A DNA stretch of 64,000 nt from Polyangiales bacterium (GTDB taxonomy: Bacteria; Myxococcota_A; Polyangia; Polyangiales; Polyangiaceae). Both the position numbers and the translations under genes were made by a program. The notes under the pieces were generated by a model. That model did not search any database and was not told the origin of the DNA. It was given only the letters and a program-made list of their open reading frames with translations. The stretch spans positions 64,001-128,000 of the forward strand of contig JBBRLQ010000005.1 in NCBI GenBank assembly GCA_038231275.1. Reading direction: 5' to 3'. Every line of letters begins with the position of its first letter. The stretch's first letter is position 1. Of this stretch, positions 6,704 through 43,372 are shown one piece after another.

Positions 6704-6713
6704 CGGGGACACG

Positions 6714-9554
6714 ATGGGGGAAGTGGAAGACGCGAAAAAGAGCAAGGAGAGCGACGACGCCGTCGTCGACACGATCGTGCGCGCCGTCGCAGCGAGCGAG
6801 TCGGGGTTCGACGACGCGGTGCTGGGCGCGCTGTTCCAAGCGCTGAGCGGCAGCATCGCGCTCGAACACTTCGTCGTGTCGCTCGAAGAGGAAGACGGCA
6901 AGAGCTTCCGCGTTTTCGCGAGGGCGGGCGGCCCGGAGGACATCGCGTTTCCCGTCGGCATCCGCGTCCCGTTCGACGGCGTCGCCGAGGGCTTCACCGA
7001 GCCGATCCGCACGCAGGAGCCGGTCGTCGTCGACGACGTGGGCTCGCGGGGCTCCCCCCTCGACACCGCGCTCTTCCAGGCCGGCGTGCGGAGCTACGTC
7101 ACGGTGCCGGTCCAAGGAAAGGTCGGCAACCGCATCTTCATCTCGCTCACGAGCGGTGACGCACGCACGCCGTGGCGGGACAAGGTCAGCCTCTTCGCGC
7201 GCGTCGCACGCGTGCTCGAGCCGGCGTTCGGCCGGATCCGCTCGTTCTTGCGCGCGAACGTGCTCGCCGCGCTCGTCGAGGCGTCGCCCGACGGGATGCT
7301 CGCGCTCGACGGGAGCTTCGTGGTGCGCGAATGCAACGCGGCGGCGCTGCGGCTCCTCCGAAAGAAGCGCGCGGACGTCGTGGCGAGGACGCTTCGCGAA
7401 GTGCTCGGAAGCGAGGGGGGCGCGCGCGTCCAAGAGGCCCTGGCGGTCGGCGCGTCGGGCTTCGCGGGCGGGCTCGCCATCGGCGCGGGAGAGACCGAGC
7501 TCGTCGTCGACGCGACGGTGGGCGCGGTGGTCGGCGAGACCGAGGCCGCGTACCACGTTCACCTGCGGGACGCGCGCGAGCGCCGCGCCGTGGAGGCCGC
7601 GATGTCGCGCCGCCTCGAGCACCTCACGTTCCTCCGAACGTTGGGCGAGTCGCTCGGGAGCGATCTGCGCGTCCACACCGCCGTCGAACGCGCGCTGGAC
7701 GTGTGCATCGCGCACAGGCCCATCCGCACCATCGCGGCCCTTCGCGCCGAGGAAGCCGGGACCCTTCGCCTCATGGCCAGCCGTGGCGCCGAGGCATCCC
7801 TCGTGACCCGCCTCGGCTGGGTCCGGCGCGATCAGCTCGAGGCGCTCCGCGTCGGCGCCTCGTGGTCTCTCATCCTCCCATTGTCTCACGCGCGCAGGAC
7901 GTGGGGCACCCTCTTCGTCGTCGGCCGGGGCGATGGGGAGATTCCCCCGCACGAGCGCGAGCTCTGGGAGTCGGTCGCCGCGACGGTCGCGTCGGCCGTT
8001 CACGCGGCGCAGGACTACGAGCACGTCGTCGAGCTCGAGGCGGAGAAGCGCGTCCTGGTCGACAGCCTCCCGGTCATCGTCGCGCGCGTAGAGCCGGCGC
8101 TCGCGTGGTCGACGTCGTTCGTGAACGGCGCCGCGGAGCGGATTCTCGGCGCATCGGCGGGAGAGCTCGCGGGCCTCCCTGGCCTCGACGGAATGTTGGA
8201 TCCCACCGATCGAGAGGCGGCGGCGAAGACGCGACGGCGCGCGGCGTGCGGGGAGAAGGTCGACTGGGCGGATCGCCACTACCGCCACAAGGACGGCCGC
8301 CCGCTCACGCTCCGCGAGTACGTCTACCCCGTGTACGACGCCGACGGGAGCGTACGCGCGGTGCAAATCATCGCGTACGACGTGACGACCGAGATCGAGT
8401 CGCGGCGTCGGCTCATCCAGACCGATCGCCTCGCATCGTTGGGCGCGCTCGCCGCCGGCATCGCCCACGAGATCAACAACCCCGTCGCCTTCATCGGGCT
8501 GGCCGCCGGGCAGCTCCCGCGCCAGACCGATCCCGAGCGCGTCGCCGAGCTCTCGCGCGAGATCGGCGACGCCGCGCACCGCATCGCGCACATCGTCGGG
8601 GAGCTCAAGCTCTTTACACGCATCCCCGACGGCGCCGCGGCGACGCCGGTTGACGTCAACCGCATGCTCGAGAACGCGGTGACGCTGACCTCGGCGGAGG
8701 TGCGCCGGCGCGCGCGACTCGACGTCGTGCTCGGCGATCTGCCGCTCGCGCCCGGGCGCTTCTCCAGCCTCGGGCAGGCGTTCGTGAACCTCCTGCTCAA
8801 CGGCGCGCAGGCGGTGGAGCTCTCGCCGCCGGGCGTCACGCGCGCGGTCACCGTGACGAGCTCCACGCGCGACGGCACCATCGTCGTGGAGTTCACCGAC
8901 AGCGGACCCAGCATCCCGCGCGAGCAGCTGTCGCGGATCTTCGATCCGTTCTTCGCGTCGGAGCGAATGGTCGCGGGGCTCGGCCTCTCCATCGCGTACG
9001 ACATCGTGCGTCGCGGAGGAGGCGAGCTGCGCGTCGACGCGACGGCAGCGGGCGGGACCAAATTCGAGGTCGTCCTGCCGATCGACGGCGCCGATCGCGA
9101 GGATGACGCCGAGGTCGCGCTCCCGCGCCGCATGACCTTCGAGAAGCCGTCGCCCATCCCGGCGGCCGGCGAGCGTCGTCGCGTGCTCATCATCGACGAC
9201 GAGCTCGCGCTGGCCAAGGCGCTCGCTCGGCAGCTCGCGGGGCGCTACGAGGTCGACACCGCCTCGACCGCCGCCGACGCGCTCGCGCAGCTGGCGGTGC
9301 ACGCCTACGACGCGGTCGTGTGCGATCTGCGGATGCCGGATCAGTCTGGCCCGTCCATCCACGCGGCGATCCACGCGCGCGCGAAGGCCCAGGCCGATCG
9401 CTTCATCTTCACGACCGGCGGCAGCTACGGCACCAGCGACGACGAGATCCACGAGCGCGCGACCCGCACCGGCCGCCCCGTGCTCGAGAAGCCGTTCGAC
9501 GGTCAGAGCTTCGAGGCGCTCGTCGCCGAAGTTGCCAGCGCCCCCGTCGGCTAG
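6714..9554 (+). CDS. Cytoplasmic hybrid histidine kinase (GAF/PAS-HisKA-HATPase-REC)
   Basis: H-box 'AAGIAHEINNP', N-box 'QAFVNLLLNGAQA', 'GLGLSI', receiver 'VLIIDDE...CDLRMP...KPF'; PAS 'VEASPDGMLALD'. Confidence 0.9.
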   Translation: MGEVEDAKKSKESDDAVVDTIVRAVAASESGFDDAVLGALFQALSGSIALEHFVVSLEEEDGKSFRVFARAGGPEDIAFPVGIRVPFDGVAEGFTEPIRTQEPVVVDDVGSRGSPLDTALFQAGVRSYVTVPVQGKVGNRIFISLTSGDARTPWRDKVSLFARVARVLEPAFGRIRSFLRANVLAALVEASPDGMLALDGSFVVRECNAAALRLLRKKRADVVARTLREVLGSEGGARVQEALAVGASGFAGGLAIGAGETELVVDATVGAVVGETEAAYHVHLRDARERRAVEAAMSRRLEHLTFLRTLGESLGSDLRVHTAVERALDVCIAHRPIRTIAALRAEEAGTLRLMASRGAEASLVTRLGWVRRDQLEALRVGASWSLILPLSHARRTWGTLFVVGRGDGEIPPHERELWESVAATVASAVHAAQDYEHVVELEAEKRVLVDSLPVIVARVEPALAWSTSFVNGAAERILGASAGELAGLPGLDGMLDPTDREAAAKTRRRAACGEKVDWADRHYRHKDGRPLTLREYVYPVYDADGSVRAVQIIAYDVTTEIESRRRLIQTDRLASLGALAAGIAHEINNPVAFIGLAAGQLPRQTDPERVAELSREIGDAAHRIAHIVGELKLFTRIPDGAAATPVDVNRMLENAVTLTSAEVRRRARLDVVLGDLPLAPGRFSSLGQAFVNLLLNGAQAVELSPPGVTRAVTVTSSTRDGTIVVEFTDSGPSIPREQLSRIFDPFFASERMVAGLGLSIAYDIVRRGGGELRVDATAAGGTKFEVVLPIDGADREDDAEVALPRRMTFEKPSPIPAAGERRRVLIIDDELALAKALARQLAGRYEVDTASTAADALAQLAVHAYDAVVCDLRMPDQSGPSIHAAIHARAKAQADRFIFTTGGSYGTSDDEIHERATRTGRPVLEKPFDGQSFEALVAEVASAPVG

Positions 9555-29208: not shown

Positions 29209-30726
29209 TCAGCCGCGGAGACGCGCGCGGTGCTGAGCGACCCATGGCGAGAGGCGCGAGCCGGTCTCGCCGGTGGTCGCGTCCTTCGCGCCCGCGGCTC
29301 GTTCGAGTCGGGCGGCGGCGAGCGCGACGGCGACCGCGATCTTCTCGCGATCCTCTGCCGGTACCGTGGGGTAGCCGAGGAGCTGCTCTTTGTTCCGCTC
29401 GAGGAACCCCGTGTCGTACCGGCCGGCGACGAACTCCGGGTGCTCGAAGAGCTTGGAGTGGAACGCGAGGTTCGTGCGGATGCCAGTGACCACGTACTCG
29501 CCGAGCGCGCGGCGCATGCGCTCGACGGCGCGCGCGCGCGTGGGGGCCCACACGCTGAGCTTGGAGATGAGCGGATCGTAGAAGCTCGAGATCGAGCAGC
29601 CGGGGTAGGCGCCGCCGTCGTCGCGAACGCCGGGGCCGGCGGGGACGACGAGGCTCTCGATGGTGCCGGGCGAGGGCAAAAATCCGCTCGCCGGGTCCTC
29701 CGCGTAGACGCGGCACTCGATGGCGGCGCCGCGCGCGACCAGATCGTCCTGCGCGAACGAGAGCTTCTCGCCCTGCGCGACGAGCACCATCTCGCGCACC
29801 AGATCGAGGCCGGTCACGAGCTCGGTGACGGGGTGCTCGACTTGGAGGCGCGTGTTCATCTCGAGGAAATAGAAGCTGCCGTCCTCGGCGAGGAGGAACT
29901 CGAACGTCCCGGCGGAGTGGTAGCCGACGGCCTTTGCGCCTTGCACGGCGATCGCGCCCATCTTCGCGACGAGCTCGCGCGAGGCGGCAGGCGACGGCGT
30001 CTCCTCGACGACCTTCTGGTTGCGCCGCTGGATGGAGCAGTCGCGCTCGAAGACGTGAACCAAGTTGCCCTCGCGATCGCCGAGGACCTGGATCTCGACG
30101 TGGCGCGGCTTCTGGATCGCCTTTTCGAGGTAGACGGTGTCGTCGCCGAAGAACTTCTTCGCCTCGCTGCGCGCGCGTTCCCAGGCGTTGGCCATCTCGC
30201 TCGCGGCGTTCACGAGGCGCATGCCCTTGCCGCCGCCGCCGCTCGACGCCTTCAGCATCACCGGGAAGCCGATCTTGGTGGCCGCGGCGATCGCCTCGTC
30301 GCTCGTGTCGCACGTCGCGCCGGGCACGATGGGGACGCCGGCGTCGCTCATGCGCGCGCGAGCTGCGGTCTTGCTGCCCATCTGGCGCATCGCGGAGGCG
30401 GGCGGGCCGATGAACGCAATGCCGGCCTTCTCGCACGCCTCGGGCAGCGCGGGGTTCTCGCTGAGGAAGCCGTAGCCGGGGTGGATGCCGTCGCAGCCGG
30501 CCTTCTTGGCGGCGGCGATGATCTTGTCGACACGGAGGTAGCTCTCGGCGGCGGGCGCGGGTCCGAGCAGGTACGCCTCGTCGCAGACGCGGACATGGAG
30601 CGCCGCGCGATCGGCCTCCGAGTAGACCGCGACCGCGCCGAGGCCCATCTCGTGGAGGGTGCGTGCGACGCGCACGGCGATCTCGCCGCGGTTGGCGATG
30701 AGGACCTTCTTCCAGGGTCGAGCCAT
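29209..30726 (-). CDS. accC: Biotin carboxylase subunit of acetyl/propionyl-CoA carboxylase
   Basis: 'KVLIANRGEIAVR', 'HPGYGFLSEN', 'GGGGKGMR', 'ERDCSIQRR', 'EMNTRLQVEHPVTE'. Confidence 0.95.
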   Translation of the reverse strand: MARPWKKVLIANRGEIAVRVARTLHEMGLGAVAVYSEADRAALHVRVCDEAYLLGPAPAAESYLRVDKIIAAAKKAGCDGIHPGYGFLSENPALPEACEKAGIAFIGPPASAMRQMGSKTAARARMSDAGVPIVPGATCDTSDEAIAAATKIGFPVMLKASSGGGGKGMRLVNAASEMANAWERARSEAKKFFGDDTVYLEKAIQKPRHVEIQVLGDREGNLVHVFERDCSIQRRNQKVVEETPSPAASRELVAKMGAIAVQGAKAVGYHSAGTFEFLLAEDGSFYFLEMNTRLQVEHPVTELVTGLDLVREMVLVAQGEKLSFAQDDLVARGAAIECRVYAEDPASGFLPSPGTIESLVVPAGPGVRDDGGAYPGCSISSFYDPLISKLSVWAPTRARAVERMRRALGEYVVTGIRTNLAFHSKLFEHPEFVAGRYDTGFLERNKEQLLGYPTVPAEDREKIAVAVALAAARLERAAGAKDATTGETGSRLSPWVAQHRARLRG

Positions 30727-30784
30727 GCCCCCTCGATACCACGAAAGGCCGCCGGATCGCGCGACGGTGCGCGACGGTGTTACC

Positions 30785-31252
30785 GTGATCTCCGTGCTCC
30801 GTTCGCTCGTGATCGCGCTCGTCCTCGTGACCCCGCGGATGGCCGCGGCGCAAGGGGCCCCGCACACGCGCGCGTCGTGCCCTGAGGGCTCGCTCCTCTC
30901 GTCGCCGCCGGACGGACGTGAGGTCTGCGCGCCGCTGAACTGCGCGTCCGACGTGGACTGTGGACCAGGTCGCGTCTGCCGCGATCTCTCGCTGTGCGTC
31001 GAGACGCCGATGGGCTCGACCACGAAATCCGCGGTGTCTGCCTGCGAATCGAGTGCAAAATGCACGTATCCGGCGGAGTGCGACGAGACGAGCAAGCGAT
31101 GCGTCCGCGCGGGGCTCGTCGAGCGGTACCGGACCTCGTGCGGGTGCGCAGTGCCGGGGCTCGGTGGAGAAGGCGGGCTCGCGGGGTCGTGCGCGCTGGG
31201 GGTGGCCACGTTGCTCGTCCACCGTCGCGCGCGAAGGCGACGTGGAGTATGA
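30785..31252 (+). CDS. Small Cys-rich secreted protein with MYXO-CTERM sorting signal
   Basis: Signal peptide, 'CASDVDCGPGRVC', C-terminal 'SCGCAVPG...hydrophobic...RRARRRR'. Confidence 0.72.
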   Translation: MISVLRSLVIALVLVTPRMAAAQGAPHTRASCPEGSLLSSPPDGREVCAPLNCASDVDCGPGRVCRDLSLCVETPMGSTTKSAVSACESSAKCTYPAECDETSKRCVRAGLVERYRTSCGCAVPGLGGEGGLAGSCALGVATLLVHRRARRRRGV

Positions 31253-32684
31253 CCAGGACGTGGCCGATCGGGATCGCGACCGGAACCTGACGCTAGATTT
31301 CGCGGCGCCGCCTCCTCCGGAGCCGAAGCCCGTGGTCGCGGAGCCGCGGCCCTTCGTAGCCCCACCTCCGCCGGTCGTCGCGGAGGCACCGGAGCCGAAG
31401 GCGCCCGAGCCGAAGCCGGAGCCGCCGCGTGCGCTCACCGTTGCCGAGCTCGATCGCGCGATCAAGGGCTCGCTCGACGAGACGTTCATTCGCGCCGTGT
31501 GGGTGTGCGGAGAGGTCACCGGCGCGCGACCGGCGTCGAGCGGCCACCTGTACTTTTCGCTCAAGGACGAGGAGGAGGACGCGTCGATCGACGTCGTCAT
31601 GTACAAGACGAACGTTTCGCCGCGGGCGCGCACGCTCGTGAAAGACGGCGCGCGCATCCGCGTGCGGGGTCGGCCGACGTTCTGGGCGCCGCGCGGCAAG
31701 CTCCAGATGATCTGCGATCGCGCCGACGCGGTGGGGCGCGGCGCGCTGCTCGAGGCGCTCGAGAAGCTGAAGGCCAAGCTCGCGGCCGAGGGGCTCTTCG
31801 CCCCCGAGCGAAAGCGGCCGCTGCCCGCCGAGCCGCGCACAGTCGGTGTCGTGTCGAGCGCGACCGGCGCGGTCATCCACGACATCTGCAAGGTCGCGTT
31901 CCGGCGCGGCGGCGCGCGCGTGCTGCTGGCGCCCGCGGTCGTTCAGGGCGACGGCGCGCCCGAGTCGATCCGCCGCGCGCTCGCGATGCTCCAGCGTGTG
32001 CGCGACGTGGACGTCATCCTCGTCGCGCGTGGCGGTGGGTCGGCCGACGAGCTCATGGCGTTCAACGACGAGGCGCTCGTGCGCGCCGTCGCGTCGTGCC
32101 GCGTGCCCGTGGTCAGCGCGGTGGGCCACGAGGTGGACGTCACGCTCTGCGATTTCGCGGCCGATCAGCGCGCCGCCACGCCGTCGCAAGCGGCGGAGAT
32201 GGCGGTCCCCGATACGAGGGCGCGCCGAACGCTGCTGGGCGAGCGCAAAAATAGGCTCCTCAGGGCCATGCGCGCGCAGATCGCCGACGACCAGCAGACG
32301 AAAGACGATCGCGCGACGCGCCTCGCTGCCGCCGTGCACCGCACGCTTGCGCGAAGGAAGGAGAGCGGCCACGCGGTCACCGTGCGCCTCGCCGCGCTCC
32401 ACCCCCGCGCAGTCATCTCGCGCGAGCGCGCCGACGTGGTGCGGATGGAGCACCGCATCGCCAGCGCCGCGCGCGCGCTCCTCGCCCGTCGCGCGTCGTC
32501 GAACGGCTCGCTCGCCGCGCGCCTCGACGCCATGAGCCCGCTCAAGGTGCTGGGCCGCGGCTACGCCATCGCCACGCGCGCGGACGGTCGGGCAATCCGC
32601 TCGCCGGCCGACGTGGACGACGGCGCGCGCATCGCGGTTCGGGTCGACGGCGGAGAGATCGTGGCGGACGTGGTGAAGTCGTGA
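31242..32684 (+). CDS. xseA: Exodeoxyribonuclease VII large subunit
   Basis: 'VWVCGEV', 'SGHLYFSLKD', 'ARGGGS', 'SAVGHEVD', 'ATPSQAAE', 'SPLKVLGRGY'; Pro-rich N-terminal extension. Confidence 0.95.
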   Translation: MEYDQDVADRDRDRNLTLDFAAPPPPEPKPVVAEPRPFVAPPPPVVAEAPEPKAPEPKPEPPRALTVAELDRAIKGSLDETFIRAVWVCGEVTGARPASSGHLYFSLKDEEEDASIDVVMYKTNVSPRARTLVKDGARIRVRGRPTFWAPRGKLQMICDRADAVGRGALLEALEKLKAKLAAEGLFAPERKRPLPAEPRTVGVVSSATGAVIHDICKVAFRRGGARVLLAPAVVQGDGAPESIRRALAMLQRVRDVDVILVARGGGSADELMAFNDEALVRAVASCRVPVVSAVGHEVDVTLCDFAADQRAATPSQAAEMAVPDTRARRTLLGERKNRLLRAMRAQIADDQQTKDDRATRLAAAVHRTLARRKESGHAVTVRLAALHPRAVISRERADVVRMEHRIASAARALLARRASSNGSLAARLDAMSPLKVLGRGYAIATRADGRAIRSPADVDDGARIAVRVDGGEIVADVVKS

Positions 32685-33442
32685 AATTCGCGGTCGTGGG
32701 CGACAAGGTCGCCCACTCCAAGAGCCCGCGCATGCACGCGGCGGCGTACGCGGCGCTCGGGATGGATCACACGTACGAGGCGATCCGCGCGACGGCCGCC
32801 GAGCTGCCCGCGGTCGTCGCGCGGTTGCGGGCGGGTGAGCTCGGGGGGATGAACGTGACGGTGCCCCACAAGGTCCGCGTCCTCGATCTCGTCGACGTCG
32901 TCGCGCCCAGCGCCGCCGCGGTCGGCGCCGCGAATACGCTGGTGCGCGACGCCGGCGGGCGCATCACCGCGCACAACACCGACGTCCCCGCGCTCGCCGC
33001 CGAGCTCGCGCTCCTCGGTCCTCCTGCGGGCGCAGCGCTGGTCCTCGGCACCGGCGGAGCGAGCCGCGCAGCGGTGACGGCGCTTCGTGACCACCTTCGC
33101 GTCGCGCGCGTCACCGTCCGAGGTCGTCCCCTCGTTTCTGACTCCGCGATCGAGAGGGACGTCGCCATCGTCGTCCAAACGACCAGCTGCGGAATGACCG
33201 GCGCCGATCCCGGCGAGATCGTCCGTGACGCCGTCGCATGGGACGCGTTGGCTGCCGGGGCCGTCGTCCTCGACGTGGTGTACGCGCCCGAGGAGACGCC
33301 GCTCCTCGCCGAAGCGCGCCGCCGTGGCCACCCCGCCGCGAACGGCCTCGGCATGCTCGCGCGCCAAGGAGCGCTCGCCTTCGAGCTCTGGCTCGGCGTC
33401 CCCGCTCCGCTCGCCGCGATGGCCGCGTCCCTGGGCGCGTAG
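32681..33442 (+). CDS. aroE: Shikimate dehydrogenase
   Basis: 'HSKSPRMH', 'NVTVPHK', 'GAANT', 'NTD', 'LGTGGA', 'GLGMLARQG'. Confidence 0.93.
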   Translation: MKFAVVGDKVAHSKSPRMHAAAYAALGMDHTYEAIRATAAELPAVVARLRAGELGGMNVTVPHKVRVLDLVDVVAPSAAAVGAANTLVRDAGGRITAHNTDVPALAAELALLGPPAGAALVLGTGGASRAAVTALRDHLRVARVTVRGRPLVSDSAIERDVAIVVQTTSCGMTGADPGEIVRDAVAWDALAAGAVVLDVVYAPEETPLLAEARRRGHPAANGLGMLARQGALAFELWLGVPAPLAAMAASLGA

Positions 33443-33465
33443 TTCGGAGTGGTGTACCTGGGACC

Positions 33466-34560
33466 ATGCGTCTTCGCGCCATCGACTGGGTCCGCGGCCT
33501 CGTCATGCTCCTCATGACGGTCGATCACGCGGGCAACATCTTCGACGCCGCCCACATGCACGGAGACGCCGCGCACGATTGGATCGTCGGCTCACCCTTG
33601 CCGGCGGGCGAATTTCTCACGCGCTGGATCACGCACCTCTGCGCGCCCACCTTCGTTCTGCTCGCCGGCGCGTCGCTGGCGCTCTCGGCGGAGAAGCGAC
33701 GCGGCCAGCCCGGGCAGACGCGCTTCATCGTCACCCGCGGCCTCTTCATCGCGGCGCTCGACCCGTTGTGGATGACGTTCGCGTTCGTCCAGTACCGCTT
33801 CTTCGTCTTCCAGGTGCTCTACGCCATCGGAATCTCGATGGTCTGCATGGCGGGACTGCGCCGCCTCTCCTCCCGCGCGCTCCTCGGCGGCGCGTTCGCG
33901 ATCCAGGTTTTTGGCGAGCTCTCGGCGCACGTTCACCCGGGCGCGCAGCCTTTACGCGCTGTGTGGAGCCTCCTCTTCGTGGGCGGTTGGGTGACCGATC
34001 AGGTGGTGTGCGCGTACCCGCTCGTGCCGTGGCTCTCGATCATGATGATGGGTTGGGTGCTTGGCCGCTGGCTCCTCGAGCCGCGCGCGGCGTTGTCGCG
34101 AGCACGGGCGCTCGCGCTCGTGGGCGTCCTCTCGCTCGGCATCTTCGGCGTCGTTCGCGGCATCGACGGGTACGGCAACTGGAACCTCCACCGCGACTCG
34201 CTCGACGTCCTCCAGTGGCTCCACGTCGCGAAGTACCCGCCGTCGATCGCGTTCACGACGCTCGAGCTCGGGATTTCGCTCCTCTTGCTCGCGGGCTTCA
34301 CCACGCTCGAGGACTCGGCGCGGGCACGACGGCCCCTCGCGCTCCTGTCTCTGCTCGGCGCGACGGCGTTCTTCTTCTACCTGCTGCACGCCCATCTCAT
34401 GTGGGGAGCGCAGGCGCTGCTCCACCTCGATCGCGATCACGGCGGCCTCGCCAAGACGTGGCTGGCCGCGGCGCTCGCCGTCGCCGTCCTGGTCGGTCCG
34501 TGCTGGCTGTACCGCCGCTACAAGGCGGCGCACCCCGACGGGTGGACGCGCTACGTTTGA
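33466..34560 (+). CDS. DUF1624 / HGSNAT-like membrane acyltransferase
   Basis: 'AIDWVRGLVMLLMTVDH', 'TRWITHLCAPTF', 'KYPPS', 'FFFYLLH'. Confidence 0.82.
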   Translation: MRLRAIDWVRGLVMLLMTVDHAGNIFDAAHMHGDAAHDWIVGSPLPAGEFLTRWITHLCAPTFVLLAGASLALSAEKRRGQPGQTRFIVTRGLFIAALDPLWMTFAFVQYRFFVFQVLYAIGISMVCMAGLRRLSSRALLGGAFAIQVFGELSAHVHPGAQPLRAVWSLLFVGGWVTDQVVCAYPLVPWLSIMMMGWVLGRWLLEPRAALSRARALALVGVLSLGIFGVVRGIDGYGNWNLHRDSLDVLQWLHVAKYPPSIAFTTLELGISLLLLAGFTTLEDSARARRPLALLSLLGATAFFFYLLHAHLMWGAQALLHLDRDHGGLAKTWLAAALAVAVLVGPCWLYRRYKAAHPDGWTRYV

Positions 34561-34585
34561 GGGCGGGCGTGGTAGACCGGGAACC

Positions 34586-36256
34586 GTGGCGCCGCGCACC
34601 CGTCGACGCATCCTGCTGGCGCTCGGTGTCGTTCTCGTCGCCGCGATCGGCGTCATCGCGTGGCGCGTGCTGGCGCGCCGTACGAAGGTCGAGCCGCGCG
34701 TGGTCGAGATCGTCGCGCTCGGCCAAGTCCTTGGCGCGCTCGAGCTGGAGCGGAGCGTCACGGTGCCCATCGAGATTGCGGTGAGCGGCGCGTCGAGCGT
34801 CGCGCGCGTCTCCAGCGTGACCTCGCAGGACAGGTCCGTCGTGCGTGCGCTTCTGTCTCCCAAGGCAGACGAGGCCTCCGCCCGCATGGAGATCCTGGAG
34901 CGCCTCCGGAGCGCGGCCCTCCCCGAGCGGGTGAGCCCCGCGCTCGCGCCTGCGGGCGGCGGTGTCACGCTCACGTACGCGCTCGTGCCGGCGCCGACGA
35001 CCGATCCGATCGCGCTGCGAACGCTCCAGGACTGGGACGTCGAGCGCGCGCTGCTCACGGTCTCCGGGGTCGCTGCGGTGAGCGCGTGTGGTGGACGCGC
35101 GAAGCGGATCGAGGTCGTGATCGACCCGGCGCGCCTACGGGCGTTCGGCATCGCTCCGACCGCAGTGGTCGACGCGATCGCTGGCGCGCCACGGCTCCGC
35201 ATGGACGACCTCGCTGTCCTCGTGGTCGCGTCGAAAAACGGCGCGCCGGTCAAAGTGGCAGACGTCGCCGCGGTCACCGTGGGAAGCGCGTCCCCGGACT
35301 GCGGTGCGTTCCGCGACGGCAAGGAGCTGATCGTGGGAGAGGTCGTGCTTCGACCTGGCGCAGACGCCGCGGCGATCGCGGCAATCGTCGCGCGCCTTCA
35401 GGCGCTTTCGGCGCGGTGGCCCGGCGCGCGCCTAGAGCCCCTGGAGACCGACGCGCGCGCCCATTGGATCCATGCGCGTGTCGCCTCCCCTGGCGACGCG
35501 ACGGACGCGCTCGTCGCTGCCGCGCGGGCCTCTGGCGACGTCACGGACGTGCTCACGCGACGTCGCGACGACGAGATGGAGATCCTGGCGCACGTGCGCA
35601 CCGGCGCGGCGATCGGCGACGCGGCGCGCGCGATGGCCCGCGCGATCGAGAAGGTCCCAGGCGCCCGCTACGACATCACCTCGCCCGCCGCCCCGCTCGC
35701 GCGCGAGCTGCGCGTCGTGCGCGCGCGACTGCAAGGCGAAGATCTCGAAGCGCTACGCGGTGCGGCGGACGCGGCGGTTGGGGTGCTCGCCGACGTCCCC
35801 GGCGTCCACGGCGTCGCCGCGCCCGACGCGCGCAGGTCCCCGCGCGCCACAGTCGTCCCCGACCGCTCCGCGCTCGCGCGCTTTGGCGTCTCACTCGGGA
35901 GCTTCGCAGAGCTCGTCGAGGTCGCGCTCGGCGGCCGGGTGGCAGGCACGCTCTACGAGGGGGAGCGGCGCTTCGACGTCGTGGTGCGCTTGCCCCGCAT
36001 CGGCGACGCCAAGGACCTCGCCGATCTCACGATCGCGACCCCGAGCGGCGCGTCGGTCCCTCTCACCTCGTGCGCGCAAGTGAAGCTCGAGGACGAGCCG
36101 GCGCGGATCACGCGCGACGGCGGACGTCGCGCCCTCGATGTCCTCTTCGACGCCCCCGATCCGCGCGTCCTCGAGGCCGCGCGGGCGCGCCTCGCCACGA
36201 CCCTGAAGCTTCCCGTCGGCGTCGAGCTCACGTTCACGCGCGCGGGCGAGGAGTGA
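34586..36256 (+). CDS. CzcA/CusA-derived protein retaining only the N-terminal anchor and periplasmic porter/docking domains
   Basis: HME-RND signatures 'LRTLQDWDV', 'DPARLRAFGI', 'GAPVKVADVA', 'LYEGERRFDVVVRL', 'ITRDGGRR', 'LKLPVG'; only one hydrophobic helix in 556 aa. Confidence 0.75.
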   Translation: MAPRTRRRILLALGVVLVAAIGVIAWRVLARRTKVEPRVVEIVALGQVLGALELERSVTVPIEIAVSGASSVARVSSVTSQDRSVVRALLSPKADEASARMEILERLRSAALPERVSPALAPAGGGVTLTYALVPAPTTDPIALRTLQDWDVERALLTVSGVAAVSACGGRAKRIEVVIDPARLRAFGIAPTAVVDAIAGAPRLRMDDLAVLVVASKNGAPVKVADVAAVTVGSASPDCGAFRDGKELIVGEVVLRPGADAAAIAAIVARLQALSARWPGARLEPLETDARAHWIHARVASPGDATDALVAAARASGDVTDVLTRRRDDEMEILAHVRTGAAIGDAARAMARAIEKVPGARYDITSPAAPLARELRVVRARLQGEDLEALRGAADAAVGVLADVPGVHGVAAPDARRSPRATVVPDRSALARFGVSLGSFAELVEVALGGRVAGTLYEGERRFDVVVRLPRIGDAKDLADLTIATPSGASVPLTSCAQVKLEDEPARITRDGGRRALDVLFDAPDPRVLEAARARLATTLKLPVGVELTFTRAGEE

Positions 36257-36383
36257 CGCCGCGGCCGCAGAGCCCTCCGGGTCGGGCGCGCCGTCGGTCA
36301 GGAGGCCGTCACTTGCCTCGTCGAGGGCCTGAAGTAGAAATATTCCGAGAAACCGATTCTGCCTCTGCGCGTCCGACGGCGAA

Positions 36384-37355
36384 GTGTGGCAAGAATTGGC
36401 GGTGGCGCAGAAGAACCGGCAACGCCTCGGATACCGCAGGATCGTCCAGCTCCTCGTCTACCTGATCATCATCCCGACGGTCCTCCTCCTCAGCCTGGGC
36501 ATCGTCCTGATGTTCATCGGCGAGGCGCGCGTGAACATCGTCCTCGGCATCCTCACGGTGAGCTTCGTCTCCGTCATGGTGACGGGCGGAATCCTCGTCC
36601 TCGTCTTCGTGCGCCGCGAGGCCAACCTCTCCGAGCTGCAAGCCGACTTCGTTTCGAAAGTGAGCCACGAGCTGCGCACGCCGCTCACCGCCATTCGCCT
36701 CTTCGCCGAGACGCTCGCAAAGACGCAAGACGAAGAGACGAAGGCCAAGTGCCTCGCCGTCATGACGACCGAGGTCGAGCGCCTCTCGCGCCGCATCGAG
36801 CGCCTCCTCGACTGGGGCCGCATGGAGGCGGGACGTAAGGCGTACGATCTCCACGAGGAGAGCGTGCAGCAGATCGTGGACGACGCGATCGCCGCCTTTC
36901 CTGCGGTGCGCTTCGATCAGGTGCGCTTCGAGAGCGAGGTCCCCGAGGGCACGCCGATGGTCATCGCCGATCGTCCGGCGCTCGTGGACGCGCTCGTGAA
37001 CCTGCTCTCCAACGCGCACAAATACGGCGGCTCGCCGCCCATCATCACCCTGCGCGTGCACACGTCGCCCAAGGGGGAGGTCTCGTTCGAGGTCAGCGAC
37101 AACGGTGACGGCATCGCGCACCCCGAGCATCGCCGCATCTTCGACAAGTTCTACCGCATCGACGATCGCCTCTCGCGCACGCGCGAAGGGAGCGGGCTCG
37201 GGCTCGCCATCGTCAAGCACACCGTGCGCGCGCACGACGGGCGCATCGCGGTCGAGAGCGCGAAAGGCAAAGGGTCGACGTTCCGCATCACGCTGCCGCC
37301 GCGCAAGAAGGCTATCGAGCAGCTCAAAATCGCGGTAAAACCGGTCGCCCAATGA
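36384..37355 (+). CDS. Two-TM sensor histidine kinase (intramembrane-sensing type)
   Basis: 'VSHELRTPL', 'NLLSNAHKY', 'DNGDGI', 'GSGLGLAIV'; two TMs joined by about 5 residues. Start may be GTG at 36402. Confidence 0.9.
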
Positions 37356-38044
37356 ACGAGCGGTCCAAGCGTCGCGTGCTCGTCGTGGAGGACGACGCCT
37401 CGATCGCGCTCGGCCTACGGATCAACCTCGAGGGCGAGGGGTACACGGTGGAGGTCGCGGAGGACGGCGAGCGCGGCCTCGAGCTGGTTCGCGCCGAGCA
37501 GCCCGACATCGTGATCCTCGACGTGATGCTCCCGCGCATGAACGGCTTCGAGGTGCTCCAGACCTTGCGTCGCGAAGGCCGGCAGATGCCGATCATCATC
37601 CTGTCGGCGAGGAACGCAGAAATGGACAAGGTGACCGGCCTCGAGCTCGGGGCCGAGGACTACGTCGCGAAGCCCTTCAGCCTCGCCGAGCTGCTCGCCC
37701 GCGTGCGCGCCGCGCTCCGTCGTGGGCCTATGGCCATCGCGCCCAAGCGCATCGTCTTCGGCGACGTCGCAATCGACATCGAAGCCCGCAGCGTGCGCCG
37801 CGCCGGGGAGCTCGTCGACATGACGGCGACCGAGTTCGACGTCCTCATGTGCATGGTGGACCTGCGCGGCCGCGCGCTCACGCGTGAAGAGATCTTCAAA
37901 AAGGTGTGGGGCGAGAACCATCACGGGACACCGCGCACCATCGACAACTTCATGCAGCAGCTGCGCGCGAAGCTGGAGGCCGACCCGCAGGAGCCGCGCT
38001 TCTTCCAGACGGTGCGCGGCGTCGGGTATCGCTTCGACGGCTGA
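37352..38044 (+). CDS. OmpR/PhoB family response regulator
   Basis: 'VVEDD', 'LDVMLP', 'KPFS', wHTH 'TVRGVGYRF'. Confidence 0.95.
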
Positions 38045-38087
38045 CGACGTGACCGCGGCGCGGTTCTGCGCTAGATCCCGCGTCCCC

Positions 38088-38555
38088 ATGGAAACGTCGC
38101 TCCTCCGCTCGTACCTGGCGACGGTCTACGAGCTCCCGACCGCGAACGGCCCGATCCGCGCCTCGCTCGACGGTGACGTCGTGACCGATCCGTCGACGTT
38201 GCCCGAGCTCCTCACGCGCCCGTTCACGGTGCTCACCGCCTACAACCCGCGATCGATGCTCCTGCCGCGCAAGGTCAACGAGTCGCGGCACGTCGTCCTC
38301 CGCGATCTGCTCATCCTGGGCTGCTACCGCGTCGAGTCGTGCGTCGGCTACGAGGAGGACCCCGAGGGGACCTGGCGCGAGCCGTCGTGGCTCGTGCATG
38401 GGATGGATCGCGACGAGGCGATCGCCTTCGGGCGCGTCTTCCGGCAGAACAGCATCCTCCTCTGCAAGAGCGGGCGGCCGGAGCTCATCGTCACCGATCC
38501 GACGTGCGACGACTTGGGTCGCACGATCGTCGGCAACTGGCGCGTGCGCAATTAG
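38088..38555 (+). CDS. DUF3293-like protein
   Basis: 'LTAYNPRS', 'WREPSW', 'AIAFGRVFRQNSI'. Confidence 0.7.
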   Translation: METSLLRSYLATVYELPTANGPIRASLDGDVVTDPSTLPELLTRPFTVLTAYNPRSMLLPRKVNESRHVVLRDLLILGCYRVESCVGYEEDPEGTWREPSWLVHGMDRDEAIAFGRVFRQNSILLCKSGRPELIVTDPTCDDLGRTIVGNWRVRN

Positions 38556-38613
38556 TGCAGAAGTCGTTTGCGCGGCGGGCAAACGACTGGAGCGACCCAC
38601 AAGACGCGCAGCT

Positions 38614-39609
38614 TCACTCGGCGTCCTTCGCGCAGCGGAAGCCGGTCATCACCAGTCGGAAGCGTCCGGGATGGTGGACGCGGTTCATGCTTCGGAGGCC
38701 GGGGCCGTCGTAGTTGTACGCGCCGCCGCGCAGAACGTGCTCGCACTCGGTCGGGATCGGGTTCGAGCCGGTGAAGCCTTGCTTGCCGTCCGCGCGGAGC
38801 TGCTGCAGCGATTTCATGATCTCCGGGCACGTGCCGGGAACTCCCTTCGCGGCGCCGGCGCGGGTGTAGGCGATCGGATCGTACTCGTCCTCGATCCACT
38901 CCCACACATTGCCCGCGAGATCGTCGTGACCGTAGGGGCCGCGACCGGTCGGGTGCGATCCGACGTCGTCCGTACCCTCGGCGCCGTACGCGCGACCGAA
39001 GACGGTTCGCTCGCGCGTCGCGGGCTCGTTGCCCCACGGGAATCTGCGCCCGTCGTCGCTGCGGCACGCCTTTTCGAACTCGGCCTCGCGGGGCAGGCGC
39101 TTGCCCTTCCACGCGCAGAACGTGCGTCCGTCGTTCCACGTGACGCCGTTGACCGGCTGCTTCGGGCGCGAGAAGAGCGTGTCGGGCCCCGCGTGCGTCG
39201 AGCTCGCGATGTGCGTGTTCGACGGGCCGCACGCCTTCGCGGCGACGCACGCGGCGTACGCCTCGTTCGTGACCTCGGTGCGATCGAGCCAAAATGCCCC
39301 CAAGGTGACCTGGTGCGCGGGCCGCTCGTCGTCCTCGCCGCCGCTGTCGCCGCCCATCGTGAAGGATCCGGCGGGCACGAAGAGCATGCCCTCGGGCGCC
39401 GGCGCGCTCGCGTCGACCGTCGCAGCTTCGTCAGCCCCGGATGGGGACGCGTCGAAGGACGCGTCGACGCCGGCATCGACGGCATCGGGGACCACAGGGT
39501 GGTCGCTCGAGCTGCCGGTCCCGGCGGGGGGGATCGGCGTGGACGTGGGCGTGCTCGCCGAGGGACAGCCGCTCAGGAGCGCTACGATAAGGACGATTGC
39601 CGTTCGCAC
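38614..39609 (-). CDS. FGE/SUMF1-sulfatase-fold lipoprotein (likely non-catalytic)
   Basis: 'FTMG', 'DRTEVTN', 'RLPREAEFE', 'DLAGNVWEW', 'RGGAY', 'GFRCA'; lacks the FGE catalytic Cys pair; lipobox 'LSGC'. Confidence 0.85.
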   Translation of the reverse strand: MRTAIVLIVALLSGCPSASTPTSTPIPPAGTGSSSDHPVVPDAVDAGVDASFDASPSGADEAATVDASAPAPEGMLFVPAGSFTMGGDSGGEDDERPAHQVTLGAFWLDRTEVTNEAYAACVAAKACGPSNTHIASSTHAGPDTLFSRPKQPVNGVTWNDGRTFCAWKGKRLPREAEFEKACRSDDGRRFPWGNEPATRERTVFGRAYGAEGTDDVGSHPTGRGPYGHDDLAGNVWEWIEDEYDPIAYTRAGAAKGVPGTCPEIMKSLQQLRADGKQGFTGSNPIPTECEHVLRGGAYNYDGPGLRSMNRVHHPGRFRLVMTGFRCAKDAE

Positions 39610-40092: not shown

Positions 40093-41064
40093 ATGATTTC
40101 GGTCCAGAACCTCGTGAAGCGCTACGACGGCCGCCTCGCCGTCGACGGCGTCTCGTTCGAGGTCGAAAAGGGTGAGGTCGTCGGGTTCCTCGGCCCCAAC
40201 GGCGCCGGCAAGAGCACCACGCTGCGCATCCTCGCCGGCTTCCTCGGAATGACGAGCGGCAAGGTGGAGGTGTGCGGCCACGACATCCAGGACGCGCCGC
40301 ACGAGGCGAAGAAGCTCCTCGGGTACATGCCGGAGGCGGTCCCGCTCTACCCCGAGATGCGCGTCGCCGAGTACCTCACGTTCCGCGCCGAGCTGAAAGG
40401 CGTCCCGCGCGGGAAGCGCACATCGTTCGTCGACGACGCGATGCAGAAGGCGAACGTGCACGACGTCGCCAACCTCACCGTCGGCAAGCTCTCCAAGGGA
40501 TACCGCCAGCGCGTCGGGCTCGCGGACGCGCTGGTCGCCAAGCCGCCGCTCCTCATCCTCGACGAACCCACGGCGGGCCTCGACCCGAACCAGATCCGCG
40601 AGGTGCGCGACGTCATCCGCGCGCTCGGCAAGGAGCACACCGTCCTCCTGTCGACGCACATCCTCCACGAGGTCGAGCAGAGCTGCAGCAAGGTCGTCGT
40701 CATCGCCAAGGGCAAGCTCGTCGCGGCGGGGACGCTCGACGAGGTGCAGAAGAAGCGCCGTCCGCGCGGCGTCGAGATCGTGGTGCGTGGCGATGGCGCC
40801 CGTGCGCGTTCGGCCATCGAGGGCGTCGACGGCGCGACCAAGGTGAAGGTGGATGCGGCGGGCGACGTGCTCCACGCCTCGGCGACCTGGGGAAAGAAGC
40901 TCGACGCCGACGCGATCGGCGTCGCCATCGAGAAGACCGTCGCTGCGCTCGTCGGCGCCGGGCTGAGCGTTCGCGAGGTCCGTCCCATCGGCAGCTCGCT
41001 CGAGGAGGTCTTCGTCGAGCTCACCCGCGGCGCGCGGCCGGACGACGCGGAGGAGCCGTCGTGA
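40093..41064 (+). CDS. ABC transporter ATP-binding protein (GldA-like)
   Basis: Walker A 'GPNGAGKST', 'LSKGYRQR', 'LDEPTAGLDP'. Confidence 0.93.
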   Translation: MISVQNLVKRYDGRLAVDGVSFEVEKGEVVGFLGPNGAGKSTTLRILAGFLGMTSGKVEVCGHDIQDAPHEAKKLLGYMPEAVPLYPEMRVAEYLTFRAELKGVPRGKRTSFVDDAMQKANVHDVANLTVGKLSKGYRQRVGLADALVAKPPLLILDEPTAGLDPNQIREVRDVIRALGKEHTVLLSTHILHEVEQSCSKVVVIAKGKLVAAGTLDEVQKKRRPRGVEIVVRGDGARARSAIEGVDGATKVKVDAAGDVLHASATWGKKLDADAIGVAIEKTVAALVGAGLSVREVRPIGSSLEEVFVELTRGARPDDAEEPS

Positions 41065-41810
41065 GGGGCTTCTGGCCGATCTACAAGCGCGAGCTCTTCG
41101 CGTTCTTCGTGACCCCGCTCGCGTGGGTGCTCATCACGGTCTTCTTGCTCGTCCAGGGCATGCATTTCTTCCTGCTCGTCGATCACTTCGCGAGTCAGGC
41201 GCAGGTGACGAGCGATCAGACGCCGCTGCAGTCGTTCTTCGGCAACACGGTCCTCCTCTACTTGGTCATCTTTCTCCTCGTGCCGCCCATGACGATGCGT
41301 CTCTTCGCAGAGGAGCGTCGCAGCGGCACGATCGAGTCGCTCCTCACCACGCCGGTCTCCACCGTCGCCGTCGTCCTGTCGAAGTACCTCGCCGCGCTGA
41401 CGACGTACCTCGCGATGTGGGCGCCGACGCTCCTCTACCTCGTCATCCTGAAGCGCACCGGCACGCTCGACTGGCACGCGGCGATGGCGAGCTACCTCGG
41501 CGTCTCGCTCGTCGGCGCGGGGTACCTGTCGCTCGGGCTCCTGATGAGCGCGCTCACGAAGAGCCAGTTTCTCGCGCTCGTGATGACCGCGCTGGTGGTG
41601 CTGGTCCTCTTCATCCTCGGCATCGGCGAGTTCGTCGCGCGGGAGGGCACGCTCGCGCATTCCATCTGCCAGCACGTCTCGATCTGGGCGCACATGAACG
41701 ACTTCGCAAACGGCGTCGTCGACTCCCGGCGCCTCGTGTTCTACGGCACGCTCATCGTCCTGCCGCTCTTCCTGACGACGCGCGCCGTCGACGCGTGGAG
41801 GTGGGGATGA
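41061..41810 (+). CDS. ABC-2 permease (GldF-like)
   Basis: 'KRELFAFFVTPLAW', 'TMRLFAEERRSGTIESLLT'; multiple TMs. Confidence 0.9.
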   Translation: MRGFWPIYKRELFAFFVTPLAWVLITVFLLVQGMHFFLLVDHFASQAQVTSDQTPLQSFFGNTVLLYLVIFLLVPPMTMRLFAEERRSGTIESLLTTPVSTVAVVLSKYLAALTTYLAMWAPTLLYLVILKRTGTLDWHAAMASYLGVSLVGAGYLSLGLLMSALTKSQFLALVMTALVVLVLFILGIGEFVAREGTLAHSICQHVSIWAHMNDFANGVVDSRRLVFYGTLIVLPLFLTTRAVDAWRWG

Positions 41811-43372
41811 GCGCGAAGAAGAAGCTCCTCGGCCTCGACCCCGCGCAGCTCACGGCGGTCATCGGCGTCGTCGCGGCGTTCGTGATCGCCGTCTTCGCCA
41901 ACGTGCTCGCCGCGCGCCGCTACACGCGCTGGGACTGGACGACGGCGCAGCGCTACTCGCTCTCGGCGGCGACGAAGACGACGCTCCATGGCCTCGGCGA
42001 GCCGGTCGATCTGTGGGTGCTCATGGGCGGCGCCGATCCACTGGAGCAGAGCGTGAAGCAGCTCCTCGTCTCGTACGAGGCGGAGACCAGCCAGCTTCAC
42101 GTCCACTACGTCGATCCCGATCGTGACACCGCCGAGCTCGAGGACGTCCGCAAGCGCTTCAACATCCAGGCTGGCGTGACGCAGGACGGGCACGTCGCGA
42201 CCGACGCGATCCTCGTCGTCGCCAAGGGCGACAAGCACTGGTTCCTCGGCGCGTCCGACATGGTGGAGGTCACCAGCGCCGAGGACACGCGCGCGAGGCC
42301 TCGCGAAGAGCAGGCGATCACCTCGGCGATCCGCAACGTCTCGCGCGACGAAGAACGGCCCCGCCTCTGCTTCACCTCCGGGCACGGAGAGCTCGCGCTC
42401 GGCGAAGGGGGACCGCGCGGTCTCTCGTTTCTCCAGGACATCCTCGCCAAGGACAACTACGAGCCGGTCGTCGTCGACACGACCGATCCGAACCTCCACG
42501 AGCCGTTCAAGGGGTGCGCGGTCGTCGTCATCGCGGGGCCGCGCGGCGATTTCCCGAAGGACGAGGAGGCGCGCCTCCGGACCTACCTGCTCGAAGGCGG
42601 GAGCCTGCTCGCGGCGCTGTCGCCGATCAACGCATCGAACGAGACGGGGATGGTTCCTCCCGGAATCGGCGACGCGCTCGCGCCGTTCGGGATCGGCGTC
42701 GACGACGATCTGGTGTTCGAGACGGATCCGGCGCTCGTCCTCCCGAGCTCGCGCAACATCCGATTCTACGCGAACGCAAAGCCGCACCCGGTCACCGCGG
42801 GGCTCGTCCGCAGCGACGAGGTGCACGATCCGCCTCGCGTTTCGCTGCATTTTTCGCGATCTCTGAAGCACGTCGCGCCGCCCGGGGCGGTCCCCGCGGT
42901 CGATCTCTTGGCGACCAGCGACAAGGCGTTCGCGGTCACCAGCATCGTCGGCGCCGCCGACTGGAAGGAGATGCCGACCCCGAAGGACACCGAGCCGAAG
43001 GGCTCGCTCGTCCTCGCGATGGCCAGCGAGCGCGCGAAGACGTCGAAGGACGCGCCGCACGGCCCGCGCGTGGTCGTCATCGGGACCGCCAGCGTCCTCA
43101 TCCGCCAGAACTGGGAGGAGCCGATGCCGCTCCGTGGCTCGGTCTTCCTCGTCGAGAGCGCGATCTCGTGGCTGGCGTCCAAGCCGGAGATCCTCGACGT
43201 CCCCGCCAAGCCCGAGGTGTCGGCCGGCATCCGCATCAATGAGGAGTCGCGGAGCGAGGTTCGGCGGTACGTCCTCATCTTCATGCCGCTCGCGGCCGCG
43301 CTGCTCGGCATCGCGGTGGCCTTGCGCCGGCGCTCGACCGAAGGGACGCCGCGGAAGAAGCCGGCCGCGTGA
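41807..43372 (+). CDS. GldG-like ABC auxiliary component
   Basis: 'RWDWTTAQRYSLS', 'YVDPD', 'FTSGHGE', N- and C-terminal TMs. Confidence 0.85.
   Translation: MSAKKKLLGLDPAQLTAVIGVVAAFVIAVFANVLAARRYTRWDWTTAQRYSLSAATKTTLHGLGEPVDLWVLMGGADPLEQSVKQLLVSYEAETSQLHVHYVDPDRDTAELEDVRKRFNIQAGVTQDGHVATDAILVVAKGDKHWFLGASDMVEVTSAEDTRARPREEQAITSAIRNVSRDEERPRLCFTSGHGELALGEGGPRGLSFLQDILAKDNYEPVVVDTTDPNLHEPFKGCAVVVIAGPRGDFPKDEEARLRTYLLEGGSLLAALSPINASNETGMVPPGIGDALAPFGIGVDDDLVFETDPALVLPSSRNIRFYANAKPHPVTAGLVRSDEVHDPPRVSLHFSRSLKHVAPPGAVPAVDLLATSDKAFAVTSIVGAADWKEMPTPKDTEPKGSLVLAMASERAKTSKDAPHGPRVVVIGTASVLIRQNWEEPMPLRGSVFLVESAISWLASKPEILDVPAKPEVSAGIRINEESRSEVRRYVLIFMPLAAALLGIAVALRRRSTEGTPRKKPAA

Follow-up and report, generated by a model that had tools for sequence, protein, structure and literature searches.

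Pumps that belong to the RND (resistance-nodulation-division) superfamily are regarded as indivisible, since their periplasmic head moves only via a proton-coupled membrane domain. In the heavy-metal efflux (HME) branch, CusF-type metallochaperones, which are small periplasmic proteins, bind the substrate of the pump and then hand it over. The present analysis concerns a gene for an RND head of the HME type that retains only the first transmembrane (TM) helix. The gene lies at 34586..36256 on the + strand of a 64,000-nt stretch from a Polyangiales bacterium (assembly GCA_038231275.1, contig JBBRLQ010000005.1, positions 64,001 to 128,000), and this whole stretch is referred to as the window. 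An earlier note had described its product, here called P0001, as an RND pump stripped of its TM blocks. We found that P0001 belongs to a family of such heads which is small, conserved, old, and sparsely distributed, and which is derived from RND pumps and lacks the membrane features that define RND permeases.

The closest described relatives of P0001 in both sequence and structure are CusA of Escherichia coli and ZneA and CzcA of Cupriavidus (PDB 3k07 and 4k0e; profile E values of 2e-103 for ZneA and 4e-91 for CusA). A report on CusA includes D405 in the proton-relay network and assigns the Cu(I) site to M573, M623, E625, and M672 (PMC8092243). An RND head has also been separated from its membrane domain by design in AcrBper, a man-made protein derived from a multidrug (HAE-1) pump. 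According to its description, AcrBper folds into a soluble protein that retains drug binding; it forms a trimer in crystals with a DARPin and has a synthetic linker, the full protruding loop, and no membrane anchor (PMC8617272). In AcrB, according to another report, a 30-residue protruding loop enters a tunnel of the adjacent protomer, and removal of 17 loop residues leaves a folded monomer (PMC3230630). This AcrBΔloop protein and the monomeric mutant AcrB P223G are inactive laboratory mutants of a full-length pump.

P0001 resembles CusA and ZneA in keeping homology to TM1 and in having all six periplasmic subdomains, which superpose on those of CusA. Unlike CusA, ZneA, and CzcA, it is devoid of TM2-TM12, the proton relay, and the transmembrane methionine pairs; its protruding loop has 11 instead of 33 residues, Cys168 and Cys239 are added, and no membrane fusion protein (MFP) or outer membrane factor (OMF) gene is adjacent. 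With AcrBper it shares the head-only architecture, and positions 30-568 of the family profile align with 3-599 of AcrBper as a single match. The family is thus a natural counterpart of AcrBper. It differs from the engineered protein in its HME origin (18-19% identity by Foldseek), in the tether by TM1 or lipid, in the direct joining of the two loops, in the Cys pair, and in the shortened protruding loop. The loop of P0001 lacks 22 residues, as compared with the 17 deleted in AcrBΔloop, and unlike in these mutants the short loop is natural and variable, in a family that is under selection.

Results

Architecture of the P0001 gene

The reading frame of P0001 extends from a GTG codon at 34586 to a stop codon ending at 36256 and encodes 556 aa. 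The open frame runs back to 34061, and this 5' extension overlaps the upstream gene; GTG 34586 is the earliest start codon past the stop of that gene and gives an Arg-rich N-terminus followed by a hydrophobic helix. The GC contents at the three codon positions were 0.79, 0.55, and 0.87, and those of the flanking genes were similar. The features of the gene are as follows.

34586..36256, + strand: gene of the TM-less RND head P0001 (556 aa, GTG start); open reading frame (ORF), Pfam, and codon-position GC
34586..34681, + strand: Arg-rich N-terminus and one hydrophobic helix (aa 1-32), homologous to RND TM1 (about ZneA 12-39), presumed signal-anchor; hydropathy, alignment, and AlphaFold
34691..35440, + strand: first periplasmic loop (PN1, PN2, DN; aa 36-285), corresponding to about 40-325 of CusA/ZneA; alignment and structure
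35087..35089, + strand: codon of Cys168, family-specific ('CGG' versus F/I/Y-G-G of full-length pumps); alignment
35177..35209, + strand: stump of the protruding (trimer-locking) loop of DN (aa 198-208, 11 residues); alignment
35300..35302, + strand: codon of Cys239, family-specific (Gly in 70/70 full-length pumps), presumed disulfide partner of Cys168; alignment
35411..35482, + strand: junction between the end of loop 1 and the first PC1 strand (aa 276-299), where TM2-TM7 (about 232 aa) have been lost from between aa 285 and 287; alignments
35444..36238, + strand: second periplasmic loop (PC1, PC2, DC; aa 287-551), corresponding to about 555-865 of CusA/ZneA, the protein ending 5 aa further on at the would-be TM8; alignment and structure

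According to the earlier note, the ORF carries a single N-terminal TM helix, motifs of the first periplasmic loop run directly into those of the second, and the protein stops just past 'LKLPVGVELTF', where the second TM bundle would begin. All of this was borne out. The Kyte-Doolittle 19-residue window exceeded 1.6 only within residues 5-31 (peak of 2.45 at 8-26), the next-best window was 1.44 at 253-271, and hence no additional TM helix was predicted. The junction string was located at aa 276-299, and 'LKLPVGVELTF' at aa 540-550, at the TM8 boundary. In the joint alignment, residues 1-285 corresponded to 8-325 of the full-length relative P0029 and residues 287-551 to its 558-861; the equivalents of residues about 326-557 and 862 to the end are missing. 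A search against solved structures aligned residues 7-280 with about 12-324 and residues 349-553 with about 633-867 of ZneA/CusA, and the family profile aligned to ZneA 16-321 and 554-835. From the P0029 and ZneA alignments it follows that TM2-TM7 (about 232 residues) were lost in frame and that the protein stops where TM8 would start; both TM blocks are thus gone at subdomain boundaries, as the earlier note had proposed. P0001 therefore has one hydrophobic segment in place of the twelve-TM, two-bundle layout of RND permeases, and the membrane-domain region bearing the proton-relay residues is missing.

The Pfam model PF00873 (ACR_tran) matched P0001 in three stretches (E value of 2.3e-54). 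The NCBIfam model TIGR00914 (CusA/CzcA) gave 191.3 bits, below the curated cut-off of 701.45, and three other family members scored 56-97 bits. Neither database has a model for the head-only architecture. Source annotations name the members 'Cu/Ag efflux pump CusA', and databases otherwise treat them as fragments.

Predicted structure

An AlphaFold2 model of P0001 was built from a 25-row alignment. The model had a mean predicted local distance difference test (pLDDT) value of 90 and a predicted TM-score (pTM) of 0.83, and every subdomain was confident. It consists of a single N-terminal helix (residues 3-32) followed by the beta-alpha-beta repeats of six subdomains, so that the homologous periplasmic head of the RND superfamily (PN1, PN2, DN, PC1, PC2, DC) is present. 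VIA-align superposed the model on ZneA with Z 36.8 (root-mean-square deviation of 4.6 Å, 542 residues) and on CusA with Z 35.8 (2.6 Å, 518 residues; model 31-556 on chain 38-864); for multidrug pumps, Z was about 30. The HME pumps are nearer than the multidrug pumps, ZneA and CusA ranking first in the sequence and structure searches. In Foldseek, the top ranks were taken by engineered AcrBper chains (5en5, 7b8r-t) and CusA (TMq 0.76-0.78, TMt 0.72-0.75). A lipoprotein-type member of the family from genome G230, which is 24-31% identical to the others, was modelled with pLDDT 80 and superposed on CusA with Z 33.7 (3.7 Å, 525 residues).

A family of TM-less RND heads

Homologues of the same architecture were retrieved by an exhaustive HMMER search over 1.84 billion representatives, and the counts below are taken from the best 150 matches. 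Twenty-five of these, all cluster representatives other than P0001, are proteins of 461-631 aa that span the query, mostly in one stretch. The others comprise five fragments of this type that are shorter, 119 whole or fragmentary pumps of at least 731 aa, and P0001 itself. The closest family relatives are P0019 (51% identity), P0020 (40%), and P0022-P0027 (37-38%). By hydropathy, no more than one hydrophobic segment, located at the N-terminus, was seen in 23 of 26 short proteins; in two others the only such window is internal and borderline (1.70-1.73), and P0114 combines an N-terminal segment with an internal window that is likewise borderline (1.65). The same crude measure gave a median of 13 hydrophobic segments for 56 full-length relatives. 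Furthermore, when 301 genomes from the same order were searched with a profile, contiguous matches to both halves were found in at least five, namely this genome (G000), G130, G230, G233, and G305; five is a floor, since it was counted among the 150 matches listed and 871 more were returned. The fusion of loop 1 to loop 2 and a C-terminus right behind the 'LPxG' motif were found in P0001 in the family alignment.

Other searches gave less. A word-index search returned, at near lengths, just P0001 itself and fragments of full-length pumps; with the family alignment as query, a wider range of lengths was admitted and full-length pumps dominated the result. The ESM Atlas gave RND-fragment clusters only (score of 0.90). 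Single-protein scans of metagenome and genome contigs with P0001, P0019, P0168, and the G230 protein yielded no matches. A search of 400 genomes of the class with the junction fragment (aa 230-355) found none at 1e-6, and this search is insensitive, because it missed the known carrier G130 too.

A tree of 30 short and 70 full-length proteins was inferred from 530 shared columns (IQ-TREE, LG+G4, quick search, unrooted). All 30 short proteins fell on one side of a branch with a Shimodaira-Hasegawa approximate likelihood ratio test (SH-aLRT) value of 99, opposite the 70 full-length pumps. P0001 was sister to P0019 (support of 97), and its end branch of 0.33 is the shortest in the clade, the near-identical G233/G305 rows excepted. 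The simplest reading of the sequences, with which the tree is compatible and which is unproven, is that the TM-less heads had a single origin from full-length HME-like RND pumps. In this tree, P0114 (616 aa), from an organism of lower GC content, is the earliest-branching short protein. It lacks both family Cys and seemingly PC1 altogether, and its loop region has a large insert (51 residues versus 33); P0114 may have arisen independently or have been reduced further. Among the best full-length matches, many (P0033, P0036, P0038, and others) measure about 1420-1490 aa, which is about 400 aa above canonical RND pumps, and the 12 such overlong proteins sampled mostly group together in the tree.

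This genome has 12 full-length RND genes and one split over two frames on contig C20, and the gene of P0001 is the sole short one. Its full-length paralogues are just 26-37% identical to P0001, which argues that P0001 is not a recent deletion of a resident pump. The in-frame loss that the earlier note had proposed stands, but it did not take place in P0001's own gene or genome; the sequence comparisons point to deletions of the TM blocks that are old and family-level. Separately, the RND gene on contig C20 (74073-77254) lies in two overlapping frames (661 aa and 419 aa) flanked by an MFP match at 73224-73823 and OEP matches at 77517-78803; the split reflects a frameshift in a pump gene or else an error in sequencing.

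In the full-text literature searched, which leaves out most subscription journals, no account of a naturally TM-less RND protein was found. The family is apparently undescribed.

Family-specific residues, anchors, and loop

Fifty-eight positions are conserved in at least 75% of the short proteins, and only two of them, C168 and C239, are private to these proteins. C168 occurs in 28/30 short proteins and in none of the 70 full-length pumps, which have Phe, Ile, or Tyr instead; C239 occurs in 29/30 and 0/70, respectively, Gly being invariant in the full-length pumps. A bulky residue facing an invariant Gly suggests that positions 168 and 239 touch, and their joint replacement by Cys suggests a disulfide, in keeping with an oxidising periplasm. 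Hence, we infer a probable C168-C239 disulfide. P0001 itself keeps the family consensus at 52 of the 58 positions, both Cys included.

The members differ in how they would be anchored. The subclade of P0001 retains a TM1-like anchor, with the helix at 8-30 in P0001, and in several other members a lipoprotein signal replaces TM1. A regular expression detected a lipobox-like motif in 15 of 30 N-termini of the short proteins, about four of which lay inside TM-like anchors on inspection, and a few extra lipoboxes were picked by eye. The clear cases are ALGC, LFAC, LVGC, and ASGC; the remaining N-termini are truncated. The lipoprotein signals in relatives and the Cys pair indicate export, and P0001 is thus probably periplasmic.

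Between the anchor columns, the protruding-loop segment measures 33-39 aa in all 70 full-length proteins (33 aa in 67 of them), 10-29 aa in 29 of 30 short proteins, and 11 aa in P0001. Because the trimer-locking loop is cut to 11 residues and a loop deletion in AcrB has a monomeric precedent, P0001 is predicted, by analogy, to be monomeric. Taken subdomain by subdomain, the identity among the short proteins amounts to 0.75-0.96 of the value for full-length pumps, with DN at 0.96 and DC at 0.87, and no subdomain has collapsed.

Selection and integrity of the gene

For the orthologues of G233 and G305, which are 85% identical, dN was 0.092 and dS was 0.725 over 522 codons, giving a dN/dS ratio of 0.126. 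The ratios of nine genes flanking these copies were 0.055-0.274. Purifying selection is thus shown in one orthologue pair. For P0001, the indirect signs in its sequence are good, namely the retention of 52 of 58 positions with both Cys and the short end branch.

The sole public run that holds the target sequence is one sediment metagenome, probably the source sample. A Logan contig of this run (2079 nt) spans 34258-36336 without a gap and with one synonymous difference; since the run is probably the source, this contig tests the assembler and not the sample. We take the ORF to be a real gene whose product would be a periplasmic RND head tethered to a membrane.

Genomic context

The genes around the target lie on one strand with small gaps, in the order xseA, aroE, HGSNAT/DUF1624-like gene, target, PhoR/PnpS-like kinase, OmpR-type regulator, and DUF3293. 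The features that bear on the origin of the locus are as follows.

33466..34560, + strand: polytopic HGSNAT/DUF1624-like membrane protein, 25 nt upstream of the target and inserted jointly with it relative to congeners
33443..36383, no strand: block of about 2.9 kb found in this genome alone, separating aroE from the kinase gene; comparison with G001, G002, and G015
36396..38044, + strand: PhoR/PnpS-like histidine kinase (two TM helices, no periplasmic domain) and OmpR-type regulator, conserved in relatives without the target

In the congener G002 and in G015, aroE adjoins the kinase gene with about 40 nt between them. Consequently, the HGSNAT-like gene and the target form a 2.9-kb block specific to this genome. 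The congener G001 has another insert of 1.7 kb at the same site, and within the genus the space between aroE and the kinase gene is a hot spot of indels. The G001 insert (G001:C91, about 6487-8226, opposite strand) encodes a secreted protein rich in Cys (about 344-362 aa), along with a short ORF. We also considered the HGSNAT-like gene as a functional partner of the target and rejected it, because in G002 and G015 its orthologues (70% identity) are located elsewhere and have no TM-less gene beside them.

The earlier note had remarked that no MFP or OMF partner is adjacent, and indeed none of the genome's 19 HlyD_D23 and 29 OEP matches is located in the window; about 65 kb separate the target from the closest MFP, and no MFP or OMF domain was found in the 11 neighbouring genes scanned. 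The target gene here is an accessory insert and no part of a pump. The other copies have neighbours of their own, namely a 2-oxoacid-dehydrogenase-like gene and a GNAT gene in G130, an M50 peptidase and an acyl-CoA ligase in G233 and G305, and a convergent ABC-HlyD-OEP operon and a sigma-54 activator in G230. Members of the family behave like rare accessory genes that lack a constant partner. No promoter-like sites were found in 31000-38700, where terminator-like sites numbered 3 against 2.3 expected, and Rfam gave no matches over the window.

Discussion

We consider it likely that P0001 is a membrane-tethered periplasmic head which acts as a passive binding, holding, or docking module without proton coupling. 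In this mechanism, a whole HME-type RND pump head (PN1, PN2, DN, PC1, PC2, DC) would be held by the ancestral TM1 helix, TM2-TM12 being missing and the proton relay with them. In the course of its history, the family would have gained a stabilising Cys pair, a lipoprotein signal would have taken the place of TM1 in several members, and the trimer-locking loop would have become shorter. The protein would make passive use of the PC1/PC2 cleft and of its porter pockets, and would serve as a tethered module for the binding, holding, or hand-off of a periplasmic ligand, or as a docking surface for envelope partners. Active transport is excluded, because without TM2-TM12 there is no proton relay, given the established mechanism of RND pumps (PMC8092243). 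A passive periplasmic module is then the most likely role, since the head is intact and conserved as a whole and shows signs of export. A conserved family that keeps the whole head and drops the motor indicates that the head has a use of its own. The mode of action of P0001 itself is deduced from these features.

A more specific version is put forward only tentatively. P0001 could be a natural free-standing RND head, repeatedly and long kept, tethered, disulfide-stapled, and in this member probably monomeric, which functions as an energy-independent receptor; a metal or other envelope ligand would be trapped in its porter cleft and then either handed on to pumps or signalling proteins or kept away from them. 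The likeness to CusF-type proteins is one of functional analogy only: the energy-independent role would be alike, and the fold and size of CusF-type proteins are unrelated to those of P0001. If such a receptor exists, it would represent a new functional class derived from RND transporters and would offer naturally soluble RND heads for the study of substrate recognition. In any case, the members would provide binding and structural studies with heads of the little-studied heavy-metal branch that are presumably soluble by nature and stabilised by a disulfide. Because databases label these heads as CusA pumps or as fragments, counts of efflux genes in myxobacteria-like genomes are slightly inflated.

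Several observations weigh against a conserved passive module. P0001 has no orthologue in two congeners, and a search at E<=1e-33 (a stricter first pass) over 382 further genomes of its family gave no match of the same architecture; likewise, the G230 copy is missing from all four of its congeners, a patchiness as in dispensable accessory genes. The five neighbourhoods (this genome, G130, G230, G233, and G305) have no gene in common, so that none of them indicates a partner for the putative ligand-binding or sensing role suggested in the earlier note. The intact ORF alone counts little, because long frames survive by chance in a stretch of 73% G+C; indeed, many spurious ORFs of 400-900 aa occur in other frames of the same region. 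The nearest relative of P0001 is too distant for a codon test (51% identity), and no RNA run among the public runs holds the target sequence. P0001 departs from the family consensus at 6 of the 58 conserved positions, and near-universal RND positions are among them (D82 for Gly, W278 for Pro, and D328 for Gly). As Arg and Lys lie on both sides of the anchor, the positive-inside rule leaves the topology of P0001 ambiguous. With regard to the ligand, no family-specific residue among the 58 conserved positions besides the two Cys marks a binding site. The Cu(I) site of CusA is mostly not kept: in the profile alignment, M623 corresponds to E330, M672 to A369, and E625 to E332, where the register may be one off, M331 being adjacent, and M573 is outside the aligned part. 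None of the family columns has a conserved Met. Judged from these alignments, the ligand of P0001 would not be Cu(I) bound in the manner of CusA.

A regulatory or decoy subunit is a less likely explanation. In this case, the head would still bind MFPs, OMFs, or protomers of full-length RND pumps, and would modulate, plug, or re-route tripartite pumps, for example by adaptor titration or as a periplasmic entry port for an ABC/MFP/OMF system. The docking subdomains DN and DC are kept about as well as the porter ones, the genome offers possible partners in its 12 full-length RND genes, 19 MFP matches, and 29 OEP matches, and the G230 gene adjoins an ABC-HlyD-OEP operon, in convergent orientation. 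However, no MFP or OMF gene is near the target or the copies of G130 and G233/G305, the trimer-locking loop of RND pumps is reduced to 11 residues, and an identity of 26-37% to the full-length RND proteins of the same genome is low for mixed trimers.

The neighbouring kinase suggests another role, which we regard as improbable: P0001 could be an accessory periplasmic sensor for this PhoR-like kinase, which has no periplasmic domain of its own, and relay ligand binding in the head to it through TM-TM contact. The two genes are on the same strand, with 128-140 nt from the target stop to the kinase start and no terminator-like site between them, and the Pfam matches of the kinase are only HisKA and HATPase_c, past two N-terminal hydrophobic stretches. 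Yet the kinase and the regulator are 89-91% identical in G001 and G002, both of which are without the target, and the existence of a kinase with about 90% identity in such congeners speaks against an obligate sensor pairing. The direct adjacency of aroE and the kinase gene in G002 and G015 points the same way, and none of the four other members examined has a same-strand two-component system right beside it.

It is also improbable that the gene is a non-functional remnant, that is, a recently acquired and decaying passenger whose frame has stayed open since stops are rare at about 73% G+C, even if the family is perhaps functional elsewhere. The lineage-specific insert, the lack of a close orthologue in anything searched, the three replaced Gly/Pro positions, and the spurious ORFs nearby would fit such a passenger. 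On the other hand, the 556 codons contain no frameshift or stop and show profile homology from end to end, both Cys and most of the conserved positions are kept, as counted above, on a short end branch, the codon-position GC is as in the neighbours, and the fold is confident in every subdomain. The earlier note had likewise argued against random decay, and the architecture recurring in 25 representatives and four genomes, the branch with SH-aLRT 99, the private Cys pair, the dN/dS of 0.126, and the pLDDT of 90 uphold that view. An assembly or binning artefact, in which a chimeric contig joins two halves of a normal RND gene, could be imagined in a 164-contig assembly whose sequence is held by one sediment run only, but it is extremely improbable, as a second assembler's contig spans the ORF (34258-36336) free of gaps, the junction and the C-terminal end recur in 25 other independent representatives and four other genomes, and the family-specific Cys pair would be left unexplained. 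The passive tethered head thus remains the reading that we prefer.

Other observations in the window

Three further loci of the window were recorded. A secreted, Cys-rich protein of 197 aa is encoded at 30659-31252 (+); its C-terminal end, a hydrophobic stretch rich in Gly and an Arg-rich tail, resembles a MYXO-CTERM-type sorting signal. The protein had no NCBIfam match, and its ORF was left unselected by a gene caller based on codon composition. At 40093-43372 (+), genes for an ABC ATPase, an ABC-2 permease, and a protein with ABC_transp_aux and DUF7088 domains stand in a row, which we take to resemble gliding-motility clusters of the GldA/F/G type. Finally, ARAGORN identified a tRNA-Val (CAC) at 62737-62829 (-), which at 93 nt is unusually long for a bacterial tRNA.

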